Shown in pieces: positions 268 to 8,624 of a stretch of DNA of 64,000 nt. Below the pieces are notes generated by a model that worked only from the letters and a program-made list of their open reading frames with translations, was not told the origin of the DNA and searched no databases. The position numbers were made by a program, and so were the translations under genes. The DNA is taken from the IMG/VR virus record IMGVR_UViG_3300033994_001010; one strand, written 5' to 3'. The stretch is from an uncultured virus (IMG/VR IMGVR_UViG_3300033994_001010) (lineage: Duplodnaviria; Heunggongvirae; Uroviricota; Caudoviricetes). Position 1 is the stretch's first letter. Each line of letters starts with the position of its first letter.

Positions 268-651
268 TTAGTACCAACCAGGTATTCTTTTGCTTTCCAT
301 TGCGTCAGCCCACGCTTCACCGTCTTCTGTTTCATTGGTAGCACGTTCAGGTGAGGGTATTGCGCCTTTAGACGCTCTAGACACCCGTTGTGCATGCAAT
401 ACCATGCTGGTAGCGATACCTTTTCGCCCGTGTTCCTCGTCAACTGCAATACCGTATAGCGGTCCCTCGTTAGGCCATGTCATTTCTGCAACTACAGCCT
501 TTGTTGGCTTGTGTACTACCGTTACTGCGTGGTCATACACCGTTGGAACCTCTTGCCCAGACTGGGTAAAGTACTCTGCATCTTCGTCTTTTACAGCCCC
601 GGTGGGTCGGTAACGGAATTGATACTCGCTTAGACTCTCGTGAGCAGCCAT
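268..651 (-). CDS. GNAT-family acetyltransferase with N-terminal MAAHESLSEYQF tag
   Basis: Acetyl-CoA motif A (VDEEHGRKGIATSM); start moved to 651 (TAATG overlap); paralog of 7506..7898. Confidence 0.75.
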   Translation of the reverse strand: MAAHESLSEYQFRYRPTGAVKDEDAEYFTQSGQEVPTVYDHAVTVVHKPTKAVVAEMTWPNEGPLYGIAVDEEHGRKGIATSMVLHAQRVSRASKGAIPSPERATNETEDGEAWADAMESKRIPGWY

Positions 652-1025
652 TACTCTGTCTCCCATGTATGGGTTGTACCCATGTGTTGACGCTTAGGTA
701 CTCGTTTTCCTGTACTTTTAGCCCAAGCATCGCCTTCGTCAGTCCGATCTGGTGAATGCTTAGGTGGTTGTACTCCACGAGTAGTTTTTGCCACATCATG
801 TGCATAGTTAAACATGTCAGTTGCTACACCCTGTCTACGGTGGTTTGGTTCCACAAAAATGTTTGATATGTGGTTGTTACCCTTTGAGTACCACTCCAAC
901 TCGCCAACATAGTCAGTATCTTCTTCCGCCACCACCCGATGCCTAGTTTCTTTACCTATAGGTGATTTAGGGTTACCCTTTTCGAACCTAAATTGGTAGC
1001 CACTCAGACTCTCATATGCTGCCAT
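651..1025 (-). CDS. GNAT-family acetyltransferase with N-terminal MAAYESLSGYQF tag
   Basis: ISNIFVEPNHRRQGVATDM motif A; start moved to 1025 (TAATG overlap). Confidence 0.8.
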   Translation of the reverse strand: MAAYESLSGYQFRFEKGNPKSPIGKETRHRVVAEEDTDYVGELEWYSKGNNHISNIFVEPNHRRQGVATDMFNYAHDVAKTTRGVQPPKHSPDRTDEGDAWAKSTGKRVPKRQHMGTTHTWETE

Positions 1026-1330
1026 TAGTTGACCCAACTAGAGTAATTCTTCTTCATTTCATGCCGTTTTGCAAAACCTTCACTTATCAAATCCCTTTTT
1101 GCAGGACTAGACACTGGTTTTCCATGAGAATCTCTCTGGTCACGTTCTTCCATAGCGTATTCCGTCATTCCAATAGCCCTTCTACGCCCTTCTGGAAGGA
1201 TAACTAACGGATGAACAGGGTTACCTTCCCCAGTTATGGTGGTTGCCCAGTTGTTAGCATAGTTTCTCGCCCATGCTTCCCGTACCCGTGGGTATGGAAA
1301 CTGCATTCCTAGACTCTCATGTGCTGCCAT
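1025..1330 (-). CDS. Hypothetical protein with MAAHESLGMQF tag
   Basis: ORF coupled to downstream gene; TATAAT 6 nt upstream of ATG. Confidence 0.7.
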   Translation of the reverse strand: MAAHESLGMQFPYPRVREAWARNYANNWATTITGEGNPVHPLVILPEGRRRAIGMTEYAMEERDQRDSHGKPVSSPAKRDLISEGFAKRHEMKKNYSSWVN

Positions 1331-1336
1331 TGTCTA

Positions 1337-1342
1337 ATTATA
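1337..1342 (-). promoter_or_regulatory. Leaderless -10 box TATAAT
   Basis: TATAAT-6nt-ATG(1330). Confidence 0.6.
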
Positions 1343-1376
1343 CGCTAAGTAAAAAATTTGCCGTCTGAAAGGGCGA

Positions 1377-1955
1377 TTATTTATCCGTAATGCCTAATTC
1401 TGCTTTTGCTTCAGCGTGATACCCACCATCATCTCGTTCTTCAGCAGCAGGGTCAGTAGAGAACTGTTGCGTACTTAGGTGCTTTACATACCCTGATTGA
1501 ACTGCCTGATGGGGGATGACATAGGAAATAGAGCCTGGGTCTTCCCACCTGTTCCTGTATTTGTTAATACCCTTTGTATTATGTTCATTTACTTGTAAAT
1601 CTTCTACGTAATCTTTGGGTTCTCGTGTCTGCCCATATCCTGCAATATGTGGGTCTTCATAGGTAACCATTGATGGGCGTTTGTTTATTTGATAAGTATG
1701 TAGATATGTTGTGAAATCTGGGCCATCTGGGTGGTCTTCATTTTCTGGGTAAGAATAGAAGTCTTCTTCCATTCTTGAATGCATTATCAGAGAACGGTCT
1801 AACGCAGCGTTAATCGTTCCAGCATGGAACCCACCTTTTGGTTTGAGTCCCAACTTATTTTTATACTTTTCATCTCTTGCAGCAAGAACATGAGGAGGCA
1901 CTACGTTTGTACTGGTATGGTAAACCGTGATGTTGGTAGGGTCTTTTTTAGCCAT
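1377..1955 (-). CDS. Putative ADP-ribosyltransferase-fold protein (ART-PolyVal-like)
   Basis: VYHTS...GFHAGT..AA..R and YRNRWEDPGSISYVIP motifs; paralog of 1955..2398 and 7007..7498. Confidence 0.55.
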   Translation of the reverse strand: MAKKDPTNITVYHTSTNVVPPHVLAARDEKYKNKLGLKPKGGFHAGTINAALDRSLIMHSRMEEDFYSYPENEDHPDGPDFTTYLHTYQINKRPSMVTYEDPHIAGYGQTREPKDYVEDLQVNEHNTKGINKYRNRWEDPGSISYVIPHQAVQSGYVKHLSTQQFSTDPAAEERDDGGYHAEAKAELGITDK

Positions 1956-2398
1956 TATTTGGGTACTCCGTGGTTAAATACGTTTCCACCGACCATTCCT
2001 TGCATGGCTTTACCGATATCTTGACCGTCACGACCACGTAAGGCTTGAAACTGTACTCCAAGGTGCTTTACGTGGTTTCCTACAAATTTTGAAGGAATAA
2101 CGTATGAAGTTGATCCTTCATCTTCAATTTTGTTCCTGTAAGGGTAGATACGCTTTTGGTTGTACTCAGGAACAACATTTGGAACATCATCGTATTCCTC
2201 TATAGGATCTGACCACATAGCACGGGAAGTAGGGGCTTTGTCAGAGATTTCATACCCATGAATAGAGGCAATACCACCTAACCGTTCTTCTTCATCTAAC
2301 CTCTCTTGGGAAGCACGAAGTGTTCCTGCATGAAAAGGAGTGTTGTAAGAATGTGGTGCTTCTTGGCTAAACGTGCCGTGGTAGACGATTTTGCCCAT
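1955..2398 (-). CDS. Putative ADP-ribosyltransferase-fold protein (ART-PolyVal-like)
   Basis: VYHGT...FHAGT and YRNKIEDEGSTSYVIP motifs. Confidence 0.55.
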   Translation of the reverse strand: MGKIVYHGTFSQEAPHSYNTPFHAGTLRASQERLDEEERLGGIASIHGYEISDKAPTSRAMWSDPIEEYDDVPNVVPEYNQKRIYPYRNKIEDEGSTSYVIPSKFVGNHVKHLGVQFQALRGRDGQDIGKAMQGMVGGNVFNHGVPK

Positions 2399-7007: not shown

Positions 7008-7498
7008 TGGGTAAAATTGTTTATCACGGAACCTTGTCGGGGAAAGCCCCACATGAAGTTGACCAACCATACTTTCATGCTGGAACTAAAGAATCTGCTT
7101 TAGACAGGATTTTGCATAAAAGCGAAACAACTACGGATACTGGGGAATACGCTTCTGGTTCTGGACAAGTCCACGCATATGAGGTTGAAGACACTGCCCC
7201 AACATCACGCAGGGTGTTTGGTGACCCAATGGCTAGAAACCCTGTTCCAGAGGGAAACATTAAGAAAATACACAGGTATGTAAACGCTTTGGAAAATGAA
7301 GGCTCAATGTCTATGGTTATACCAACAAGATTTGTTGGAACACACGTACGGCATTTAGGTGCTCAATTCTCTGAAAACCTAGATAACGTACTAACAAAGG
7401 CAAGCCAACATGTTACTTCCTCAGAGCAAGAAAACAAAGGTTCTGCGTTAAAACCTAACCAAAAACAAAAACTATCTGAAATCTATTCGGAACTATAA
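7007..7498 (+). CDS. Putative ADP-ribosyltransferase-fold protein (ART-PolyVal-like)
   Basis: MGKIVYHGT...FHAGT; YVNALENEGSMSMVIP; paralog of 1955..2398. Confidence 0.55.
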   Translation: MGKIVYHGTLSGKAPHEVDQPYFHAGTKESALDRILHKSETTTDTGEYASGSGQVHAYEVEDTAPTSRRVFGDPMARNPVPEGNIKKIHRYVNALENEGSMSMVIPTRFVGTHVRHLGAQFSENLDNVLTKASQHVTSSEQENKGSALKPNQKQKLSEIYSEL

Positions 7499-7505
7499 TT
7501 GAGTC

Positions 7506-7898
7506 ATGGCTGCACATCATAACCTAAGCGAATATCAGTTCAGGTATCGCCCTACTGGTCCTCAAGTAGATTTTCCTGGTTACGATAATACTCGTGATGA
7601 AGATGAGTGGGATGAAAATAAATGGACTTTGTATGACCACGAAGTTTACGCAGTACATAAACCAACCAATAGTCGGGTTGGTGAAATGTTTTACCATACA
7701 GATGGTCCTATCTTTCAAATTGATGTTGATGAAGACCATAAGCGTAAAGGTATTGCTACAGAGATGGTAAACCATGCAACAAGAGTGGCAAAGGCATCTA
7801 ATAAGAAAATACGCCCCCCAAGCCGTGCGTACACTGAAACAGACGAAGGTTCAGATTGGGCTGATTCAATGGTAAAACGTGGATTGATGAAAGAGTAA
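7506..7898 (+). CDS. GNAT-family acetyltransferase with MAAHHNLSEYQF tag
   Basis: IDVDEDHKRKGIATEM motif A; TATAAT-6nt-ATG. Confidence 0.75.
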   Translation: MAAHHNLSEYQFRYRPTGPQVDFPGYDNTRDEDEWDENKWTLYDHEVYAVHKPTNSRVGEMFYHTDGPIFQIDVDEDHKRKGIATEMVNHATRVAKASNKKIRPPSRAYTETDEGSDWADSMVKRGLMKE

Positions 7899-8281
7899 TG
7901 GCTAAAGAACACCTTCAAGGCGAACAACTTAAAATGTTTATGACCCCTAATGAAATCATTGGGGCTGTTGATGACTCTGTAGACCGTAACGAAGACGAAG
8001 ACCTAGATCAATTATGGGAAATGAAAGAATCAGAACTTGATAACAGCCCAGAGTATTCCAAATTAAAAGAAAGTGTCAACAAAGAAGGCGTTAAACGCCC
8101 AGTTACTTTAACTACTAACTACGGTGGTAAAGGTACTTTGTTTATGGGTGATGGTCATCATCGTGTTGTCGCTGCTTACCAAAAACAAGAGCAAACTAAA
8201 AGACAACAATATGTCCCCGTTATTTATTCGAATAACTATGGTGAAACTGCTGATTCTATTTTTGATGAACCAAGCAAGTGA
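7898..8281 (+). CDS. ParB/Srx-like N-terminal domain protein with MAKEHLQGEQL tag
   Basis: LKESVNKEGVKRPV...MGDGHHRVVAA motif. Confidence 0.75.
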   Translation: MAKEHLQGEQLKMFMTPNEIIGAVDDSVDRNEDEDLDQLWEMKESELDNSPEYSKLKESVNKEGVKRPVTLTTNYGGKGTLFMGDGHHRVVAAYQKQEQTKRQQYVPVIYSNNYGETADSIFDEPSK

Positions 8282-8305
8282 CTAAATTTCTACTAATATT
8301 TAACT

Positions 8306-8479
8306 ATGCCAACATATGCTTACAAATGTGAAAATGATCATCGCCATGAGGAGACTCGTAGCATTTACGATGAACAGAAAACAATTACGTGTCCAGACTG
8401 CAACGAGAAATTACGCCCTGTTTATTTCTCCCCAGCAGTAAATCTTGTAGGAAGAGGCTTTTATTCCAATGGAGGATAA
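8306..8479 (+). CDS. FmdB-family zinc-ribbon protein (not in ORF track)
   Basis: MPTYAYKCENDH...CPDC...GRGFYSNGG. Confidence 0.8.
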   Translation: MPTYAYKCENDHRHEETRSIYDEQKTITCPDCNEKLRPVYFSPAVNLVGRGFYSNGG

Positions 8480-8624
8480 AAAGACCTTAAGTTCTCAGTT
8501 TGATGAGGAATACGGCGAAGAAGGGCATTACGAAGATTTGCATTTCCGAAAGAGCAATCGGAAGGATTCCCATGACCGTAAGGACAAAAAGAAGATAAAG
8601 AAGTTCTCTAAATACGATTACTGA
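8469..8624 (+). CDS. 51-aa charged protein with LSSQF tag (not in ORF track)
   Basis: Hand translation MEDKKTLSSQFDEEYGEEG...KKFSKYDY. Confidence 0.6.
   Translation: MEDKKTLSSQFDEEYGEEGHYEDLHFRKSNRKDSHDRKDKKKIKKFSKYDY

Follow-up and report, generated by a model that had tools for sequence, protein, structure and literature searches.

A portable N-terminal peptide on unrelated small proteins of an uncultured myovirus lineage and its possible role in virion loading

The window considered here, a stretch of 64,000 nucleotides (nt) analysed over its whole length, comes from an uncultured virus of the Caudoviricetes (IMG/VR record IMGVR_UViG_3300033994_001010) and, according to PHROG and Pfam scans, represents most of the genome of a contractile-tailed phage. 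Its positions 268-8624 form an accessory island of small genes on both strands, in which nine open reading frames (ORFs) within 268-7898 begin with the pattern M-[AP]-A-x-x-x-[LI]-x(2-3)-Q-[FLS], about 0.1 being expected by chance. This peptide, hereafter the tag, heads otherwise unrelated stand-alone proteins, recurs in related phages and may be an address label by which small effectors are loaded into the virion. The island contains the following genes (lengths in amino acids, aa):

268..651, minus strand: tagged GNAT mini-acetyltransferase, 127 aa, starting MAAHESLSEYQF, no cysteine; weak Pfam GNAT matches; 52% identical to its paralogue at 7506-7898
651..1025, minus strand: tagged GNAT, 124 aa, starting MAAYESLSGYQF; Pfam Acetyltransf_10 at 6e-8; start overlapping the upstream stop (TAATG)
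1025..1330, minus strand: tagged 101-aa protein of unassigned fold, starting MAAHESLGMQF (2-residue spacer); TATAAT box 6 nt upstream of the ATG; homologue in the relative L033 tagged too
1377..2398, minus strand: two untagged, cysteine-free paralogues (1377-1955 and 1955-2398), also paralogous to 7007-7498, with Y-H-G-T / H-A-G-T motifs that are ADP-ribosyltransferase (ART)-like by eye only; no family matches in Pfam, PHROG and NCBIfam-type scans
2398..2571, minus strand: tagged 57-aa peptide with a basic tail (charge +6), starting MPAQNNLNGQQF; all four homologues tagged
2571..3005, minus strand: tagged 144-aa protein, starting MPAYENLNSFQS; V-Y-R-G / L-Y-R-G in its relatives, ART-like by eye only
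3005..3436, minus strand: tagged 143-aa protein with a GTG start, (M)AAHEHLNPDQL, two cysteines
3436..3936, minus strand: tagged 166-aa protein, starting MAAKHSLNSRQF followed by F-I-H-G-S-P; -10-like box 6 nt upstream of the ATG
6489..7007, plus strand: tagged 172-aa protein with a basic tail, starting MPAHNSINWDQF; H-R-G / S-G-S / G-E-x-E-V motifs, R-S-E ART-like by eye only; TATACT box 6 nt upstream of the ATG
7007..7498, plus strand: untagged, cysteine-free 163-aa paralogue of 1955-2398 (BLAST)
7506..7898, plus strand: tagged GNAT, 130 aa, starting MAAHHNLSEYQF (Pfam, AlphaFold, Foldseek); TATAAT box 6 nt upstream of the ATG
7898..8281, plus strand: ParB/Srx-like 127-aa protein with a shortened tag, MAKEHLQGEQL (weak PHROG and Pfam matches, family alignment, PDB profiles)
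8469..8624, plus strand: 51-aa basic peptide, MEDKKTLSSQF, with the core motif only

All eleven N-termini listed by the first-pass annotation are present where it placed them. Nine are strong tags, starting at 651, 1025, 1330, 2571, 3005, 3436 (the GTG) and 3936 on the minus strand and at 6489 and 7506 on the plus strand. In six-frame scans of the whole window, set against 30 shuffles, the strict pattern M[AP]A...[LI]..{0,2}Q[FL] matched 7 times (shuffle mean 0.03, maximum 1), while a loose pattern matched 10 times, at the nine listed starts and at a spurious site at 3246 (shuffle mean 0.1). The core without methionine, [AP]A[HYQK][EHN][SNH][LI], also gave 10 matches, namely the nine tags and one site at 22731 (shuffle mean 0.27). 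A position matrix reached at least 20 at eight places in the window, all of them directly on an ATG or GTG start (36.3 at the ATG of 268-651), and the same exclusive placement on start codons was seen in two relatives, at both places in G005 and at both in G002; as this matrix was built from the tags of relatives including the window's own, its scores are partly circular, which does not apply to the start-codon restriction. The enrichment check proposed in the first-pass annotation, carried out on the window against shuffles, places the motif far above chance. The tag at 7898 is one residue shorter and scores 16.7 in a shifted register, and its homologues in relatives bear the full tag. The start at 8469 is a doubtful member, having only the L-S-S-Q-F core and not being scored as a tag by the matrix. 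An internal H-L-G-x-Q-F in the untagged paralogues was considered as a displaced tag and discarded, with matrix scores below 10.

The same tag residues are encoded by different codons in different genes (GCT/GCA/GCC, CAC/CAT, CTA/CTG/CTT/TTA), and the tag is therefore conserved at the level of the peptide and not of the DNA; judging by these sequences, it is the tag peptide on which selection acts. All-against-all BLAST linked only the three GNAT paralogues (268-651, 651-1025 and 7506-7898), the other six strongly tagged proteins having only their first 11-14 residues in common. Whole-gene duplication, dismissed already in the first-pass annotation, consequently does not explain the shared tag.

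To reach relatives, IMG/VR was scanned with a DNA pattern encoding M-[AP]-A-H-[ED]-x-(NTN codon)-x-x-x-Q-F, which matched 44 stretches in 37 contigs. At least one tagged ORF of at least 45 aa is held by 31 of these contigs, 18 of which hold at least two within 6 kb; the remaining six have no tagged ORF of that length and look like chance matches. The tag-bearing contigs have GC contents of 0.43-0.55 (18 contigs) or 0.62-0.67 (13 contigs). Pooled with the window they provide 73 distinct tagged proteins, which fall into 23 BLAST families once the tag is removed, and the earlier idea of a portable label on unrelated proteins is borne out by this diversity. A capsid protein of the window's type, at 60-96% identity, was present in all five long tag-bearing contigs tested. 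A related pattern applied to one genome from each of 185,579 bacterial and archaeal species gave 76 matches, all internal to or antisense of host genes, with no phage-type tag and no tagged prophage or host protein among them. In a cultured phage collection, neither a DNA match to the first 9 kb of the window nor a protein match to two of the tagged GNATs was found, and a literature search by general terms rather than by the motif sequence, with subscription journals and supplements outside its scope, returned no paper on the motif. The restriction of the tag to one capsid lineage across a GC range of 0.43-0.67 argues for a phage-encoded reader, and the sequence data fit a portable recognition label that would be read by something specific to this phage lineage.

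Two further N-terminal signatures were observed in the relatives. At least 10 small genes begin with the motif M-[AP]-x-G-...-H-[HD]-P-x-R-x-V-[GS], in G005 (L058/L062; 1860, 96885 and 97199, minus strand), L031 (6254, 5568 and 4600, minus), L028 (6336, plus), L048 (5701, minus), L029 (6824, minus) and G002 (39845, minus). Several of these genes lie between the terminase and portal genes and adjoin genes with the main tag; the motif was not seen in the window or in Streptomyces phage BRock. In addition, tag clusters of several low-GC relatives have as neighbours large zincin (HExxH) proteins of 467-566 aa, apparently cysteine-free by eye, whose N-terminus M-P-(T)-L-G-x-Q-F-x-N-T-[YF] is a shortened version of the tag (L061 10538-13588 in G005, L008 5709-7409, L011 7823-9529, with homologues in L016/17/21/22 and L007/51). 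No such zincin occurs in the window, in G002-G004 or in BRock.

The tag has the 12-residue consensus M-[APS]-A-[H]-[ED]-x-[LIV]-[SN]-x-x-Q-F. Among the 73 proteins, position 2 is occupied by A (44), P (24) or S (5) and position 7 by L, I, V or M, while 48 have H at position 4, 56 have E at position 5 and 58 have S or N at position 8; as the selecting pattern limited positions 2, 3, 5 and 7, only the unconstrained positions count as findings. The spacer has three residues in 55 proteins and two in 17, and the tag ends with Q-F in 59. In an alignment of GNATs that are 27-53% identical, M1 never varies and the conservation of A3, Q11 and F12 reaches at least 90%, which equals that of the acetyl-CoA motif. 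For the 6489-7007 protein, the tag is kept in 14 homologues at 64-99% identity, with A3, I7, N8, W9, Q11 and F12 invariant. In the AlphaFold model of the 7506-7898 GNAT, a coil (residues 1-6) and a turn (7-9) are followed by the first strand, beta-1, which spans residues 10-16 (Y-Q-F-R-Y-R-P); with Q-F lying within beta-1 and no linker, the tag is predicted to run straight into the fold. The segment L-[SN]-x-x-Q-F resembles the pattern h-[STND]-x-x-[EQ]-h, in which a helix-capping box is combined with a hydrophobic staple. One GNAT in G005 (L061 14179-14667) has the core L-S-Q-V-Q-F behind a different 17-residue leader (MPREPRDTHNKEYPLEK...) and is the only case seen with the core away from the very N-terminus.

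A search of 1.84 billion representative proteins with a profile of the tagged GNATs gave 1,922 matches at E ≤0.001, of which the best 150 were examined. Among these best 150, the full tag starts 44 of the 87 homologues of up to 260 aa, and many other short ones start with a shortened L-x-x-x-Q-F. The other 63 are long polyvalent proteins of 316-4,739 aa, together 105,667 residues, with up to 12 GNAT repeats; nowhere in them does the matrix score reach 13, and they contain the core motif once, as compared to 2.4 times in shuffles. Eight further long homologues are tagless as well. Its absence from the fused forms implies that the tag is neither part of the GNAT fold nor an inter-domain linker; on the evidence of these alignments it belongs to the N-terminus of stand-alone proteins. 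A role as a polyprotein linker, suggested by junctions picked by eye in the eight long homologues, was abandoned, as these junctions were within shuffle noise and none was found in the 63 others. Ten of the 63 long proteins begin with M/V-S-x(0-3)-W-G-L-[WH]..., possibly another N-terminal signature.

The fold labels given in the first-pass annotation fared unevenly. The GNAT fold is firm, with Pfam matches and an AlphaFold model of 7506-7898 (predicted local distance difference test score, pLDDT, 79.5) whose top Foldseek matches are all GNAT acetyltransferases (E ~1e-3, probability 1.0); the acetyl-CoA motif R/Q-x-x-G-x-A/G is present, with R80, G82 and T85 conserved. For the 7898 family, a D-G-H-H-R motif, weak PHROG matches of ParB type and weak PDB profile matches, 10 of 12 of them to ParB, KorB, SbnI or Spo0J, make for a weak but consistent ParB/Srx-like assignment. 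The ART-like label comes down to motifs seen by eye and a single Pfam match (Arr-ms, E = 0.005) of a tagged family of the relatives, ...Q-F-F-H-G-T, in which the domain begins directly after the tag. An ART fold for 6489-7007 was dropped, its AlphaFold model (pLDDT 59) being too poor for a fold search and no PDB profile or NCBIfam match being obtained. The papain-like label corresponds to one Atlas lead of 3005-3436 to the Tox-PLDMTX/SseI family (0.92, a lead only). The carriers therefore do not all share one fold, as the earlier annotation had held: by sequence profiles and, for the GNATs, a structural model, the tag is found on two or more distinct folds, most families having no assigned fold.

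Outside the island, PHROG and Pfam scans assigned the following genes:

29252-30817: terminase
35554-36186: HslV/proteasome beta-type peptidase, starting M-T-T-I-V, two genes upstream of the portal gene
36521-38209, plus strand: SPP1-type portal
38268-39050, plus strand: coiled-coil scaffold
39082-40161, plus strand: major capsid protein, 359 aa, 62% identical to the capsid protein of BRock and of BRock type; four other BRock-like Streptomyces phages matched it too

Sheath, tube and baseplate genes were also recognised, with replication genes after them. The head operon of the high-GC relatives itself contains tagged genes. Alignment of the GNATs recovered 59 loci, 28 of which begin with the full tag; 14 of these 28 hold head or tail genes of the lineage type within 10 kb, and together with seven loci whose start call exposed no tag they make up 21 loci with such genes, in all of which the GNAT is on the head-gene strand. 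The GNAT follows the terminase gene at 20-30 nt or the capsid gene at about 70 nt, precedes the terminase gene by about 1.3 kb, or is flanked by the capsid and sheath genes. In G002, two tagged genes are found between homologues of the window's 41324-42160 and 42164-42697, and two more (38502 and 38122) directly before the portal gene, which tagged genes also precede in L029, L020 and L031. The capsid proteins of high-GC relatives are 448-465 aa long, versus 359 aa in the window, and have an N-terminal extension and an internal insertion (L146 7223-8584, L147 13630-15024, L064 13960-15303, L031 396-1742).

With regard to expression signals, the start codon overlaps the preceding stop codon (TAATG or TGATG) in 51 of the 73 tagged genes, a TA[TC]A[AC]T box precedes the ATG by exactly 6 nt in 18, and three have neither. 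A box at this distance would put the start of the transcript on the start codon. As untagged island genes behave alike, the mode of starting characterises the island rather than the tag. Across the window such boxes stand 6 nt (once 5 nt) before the start codons of nine genes, seven of them in the first 9 kb (at approximately 1318-1324, 3943-3948, 3962-3967, 4930-4935, 5848-5853, 6477-6482 and 7494-7499, and before 22959 and 27912), and TATAAT is otherwise rare there, with 19 copies on both strands versus about 69 expected. These sequences suggest that transcripts of the accessory island are leaderless. A sigma-70 promoter scan found fewer sites than in shuffles and was uninformative.

The tagged proteins are small (53-229 aa, median 126) and nearly devoid of cysteine. 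Their 9,435 residues include 6 cysteines, as compared to 0.68% in untagged window ORFs and 0.34% in the window's structural proteins, and 69 of the 73 proteins have none; by family, 21 of 23 representatives are cysteine-free versus 9.8 expected (binomial P ~1.5e-6), the family of 3005-3436 being one of the two exceptions. A net charge of at least +3 over the last 15 residues is found in 38% of tagged proteins versus 11% of 237 control ORFs. Small size, scarcity of cysteine and basic tails are properties expected of proteins that leave the cell through the tail.

The reading that we favour, and to which we assign an even chance, is that the tag acts as an uncleaved address label that loads a swappable set of stand-alone effectors into the virion. 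Within one clade of myoviruses, the tag would have come to head many small stand-alone enzymes that are unrelated to one another. Since residue 2 is always A, P or S, the initiator methionine would be removed, given the known specificity of methionine aminopeptidase, and residues 2-6 would remain exposed. The segment L-[SN]-x-x-Q-F may form a small capping turn at the very start of the domain, with the leucine beside the phenylalanine; one AlphaFold model shows the turn at 7-9 and the first strand beginning at residue 10, and the packing of the two side chains and the capping box are suggested by the sequence. During procapsid assembly, this knob could be bound by a conserved head component, for which the portal, scaffold and major capsid proteins (36521..40161, plus strand) are candidates, and a changeable set of effectors (GNAT, ART-like, ParB/Srx-like and others) would then be packed inside the head and delivered along with the DNA. 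Removal of the tag is improbable, and the tagged proteins may represent, in unfused form, what other phages have as multi-domain polyvalent proteins. A bolder version, which we hold somewhat below an even chance, would make the knob a universal loading ticket of the whole clade, by which any small cysteine-free enzyme with these 12 residues is taken into the head and injected. It would operate in phages of GC 0.43-0.67 as a modular, unfused equivalent of the polyvalent proteins, read by a conserved head protein, and the ...H-[HD]-P-x-R-x-V... motif on other small genes beside the portal gene of the same lineage could be a second such ticket.

Virion loading, proposed already in the first-pass annotation, is favoured by the placement in late operons of the high-GC relatives, the restriction to unfused proteins, the small size, the near absence of cysteine, the basic tails, the polyvalent-like repertoire and the precedent of phage T4; the 21 loci on the head-gene strand, the tagless fused GNATs and the protein properties are circumstantial support for a reading in which the tagged proteins would be bound by a head component, packaged and ejected. 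Several observations weigh against it. Tagged genes of the window and the low-GC relatives are grouped in an island of their own beside the tail-fibre end of the late operon, and the structural genes of the window run opposite to 7 of its 11 tags. The structural genes of the window have AGGAG-type sites 7-9 nt upstream of the ATG and the island genes do not, which fits low or early expression as well as late expression. BRock, a cultured relative, has neither the tag, with no matrix score of 20 or more, nor homologues of the tagged proteins. The position of Q-F within beta-1 of the model suggests that the tag is not a free flexible leader like the T4 sequence, and the PHROG and Pfam scans of the window detected no prohead protease or MuF protein. 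The contrasts in cysteine content and basic tails were drawn with mechanical ORF calls that include some false genes, especially in the high-GC genome.

The search for a reader was likewise unproductive. A complex prediction for the capsid protein, the scaffold and a tagged GNAT scored 0.00, which counts neither way on binding; comparison of the portals of tag-bearing phages with that of BRock showed no distinctive region, and the scaffold termini do not resemble the tag. The product of 40497-41138, which is present in tag-bearing genomes and unmatched in BRock, gave no usable lead in an Atlas search. The HslV-like peptidase, 96% identical to its counterpart in G005, was rejected as a universal reader, having no BLAST match in the tag-bearing G002 or in BRock, and the zincin proteins were rejected as a universal reader or processor on account of their absence from several of the genomes. 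The separate, possibly early island of the low-GC genomes and the failure to find a reader weaken the case for loading.

An unlikely, though by no means negligible, alternative is that the tag is a docking motif for a common partner outside the virion, acting on early host-takeover enzymes in the infected cell. The partner could be a chaperone of phage or host, an activator or inhibitor, or a factor of timed proteolysis such as the phage's own HslV/proteasome-like peptidase, which is encoded at 35554-36186. Such a role would suit the low-GC tagged genes, which lie in an accessory island partly divergent from the late genes, and also the window's first genes of mini-operons, which have -10-like boxes and no ribosome-binding site of the structural type. 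It accords less well with the high-GC tagged genes, which are in the head operon and on its strand in 21 of 21 loci, and with the peptidase gene being shared by the window and G005 yet unmatched by BLAST in tag-bearing G002; the scarcity of cysteine and the tagless fused forms would be left unexplained, and for a host partner the occurrence of one capsid lineage over a wide GC range argues otherwise. We give less credence to the tag being a self-contained N-terminal cap that stabilises the first strand or helix of small domains and was spread by recombination as a 5' gene cassette. The fit of L-[SN]-x-x-Q-F to the capping pattern, the location of Q-F in beta-1 of the GNAT model and the many stand-alone GNAT homologues that keep just L-x-x-x-Q-F speak for a structural part. 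However, the GNAT repeats of the 63 polyvalent proteins fold without it, the exposed A-A-H-E is conserved too (H4 in 48 and E5 in 56 of 73, positions 2, 3, 5 and 7 being limited by the pattern), and it is hard to see why unrelated folds of one lineage would need the same cap; the low DNA identity among the window tags shows no recent exchange of a cassette there.

A protease recognition or maturation site, either a removed leader as in T4 or the remnant of a linker between polyprotein modules, appears very improbable. It has the T4 precedent (PMC3012670), and the large zincin proteins with short-tag starts adjoin tag clusters in several low-GC relatives. However, no tag-like sequence occurs at the internal junctions of the 63 and the 8 long homologues, and the zincin is missing from the window, G002-G004 and BRock. 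The suggestion in the first-pass annotation of a maturation cleavage site also goes unsupported in that the tags lack the T4-type L/I-x-E consensus, that no head protease family, including the T4-type prohead protease, was detected by the PHROG and Pfam scans, and that Q-F is part of a predicted strand. The slightest probability of all goes to a conserved start that aids translation where no ribosome-binding site exists, through a nascent-peptide or early-codon effect on leaderless or re-initiating ribosomes. The 51 stop-start overlaps and the 18 boxes exactly 6 nt upstream among the 73 genes would agree with such an element, as would the use of AGGAG sites by the window's structural genes instead. 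Against it, the untagged island genes 1955, 7007, 3974, 4942 and 5860 share these modes of starting, synonymous codons vary freely, the same peptide is found at GC 0.43 and 0.67, and no translation mechanism is known to need residues 7-12.

Known systems offer partial parallels to an address label for virion loading. T4 Alt, an ADP-ribosyltransferase, carries the T4 capsid-targeting sequence together with internal proteins I-III. According to PMC3012670, the T4 internal proteins have only this sequence in common and are anti-defence or host-modifying factors. The tag is similar in being a short N-terminal peptide that is the sole common part of diverse, fast-changing and clustered small proteins. 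It differs in that its sequence is unrelated, with L-x-E in just 2 of the 11 window tags (651 and 7506), and in that it abuts the fold in the GNAT model and is probably not removed. PHROG and Pfam scans of the head region revealed a coiled-coil scaffold and an HslV-like peptidase, and no genes of gp21 or gp22 type; the portal is of SPP1 type and the capsid of BRock type. Since neither the protease site nor T4-type core genes were found, the tag is not counted among the T4 capsid-targeting systems.

For polyvalent proteins, PMC5512222 describes a repertoire of effector domains that includes RimI-like GNAT, ART, ParB/Srx and zincin peptidase, and solo GNATs beside late genes have already been proposed there to be deployed from the capsid (Iyer et al. 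2017). The domain repertoire of the tagged proteins appears to match this one, with GNAT firm, ParB/Srx weak, and ART and papain-like represented by motifs and leads only. The same GNAT subfamily occurs, in 2-12 repeats, in the 63 long proteins of up to 4,739 aa. Unlike polyvalent proteins, which have 2-15 domains each, those of the window are single-domain proteins of 51-172 aa (about 50-230 aa for tagged genes overall); the fused forms are tagless, and no MuF domain was found in the window. Linkage to head genes holds for the 21 high-GC loci, the window's genes being in a separate island.

Two other systems resemble the proposed label in principle. In encapsulins, short cargo-loading peptides direct unrelated enzymes into a shell of the HK97 fold, to whose inner face they bind; these peptides are usually C-terminal and have a different consensus, and binding of the present tag to a capsid is a candidate mechanism. 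Payloads of Photorhabdus virulence cassettes and other extracellular contractile injection systems need an N-terminal region for loading into a contractile-tail particle; unlike the tag, these signals are about 50 residues long, disordered and poorly conserved, and they serve ATPase-aided loading of the tail tube.

If the tag is a loading signal, it would constitute a second system of the T4 capsid-targeting type, unrelated in sequence, in an uncultured lineage of wide host range. It would then provide a simple sequence rule for finding injected phage effectors in metagenomes, starting with 23 families of which most have no assigned function, and would show how phages swap between fused (polyvalent) and tagged stand-alone arsenals of effectors. 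Phage engineering would gain a practical tool as well, since foreign proteins could be brought into capsids by means of 12 residues.

Apart from the tagged genes, the window encodes several proteins of metabolic type (4313-5841, 16695-17369, 19562-20395 and 26565-27335). These include a fatty-acid desaturase (PF00487, 1e-30), which adjoins a protein of the phrog_3704 'ferredoxin' family, as well as a 2OG-Fe(II) oxygenase and TauD-like and PhyH-like dioxygenases.

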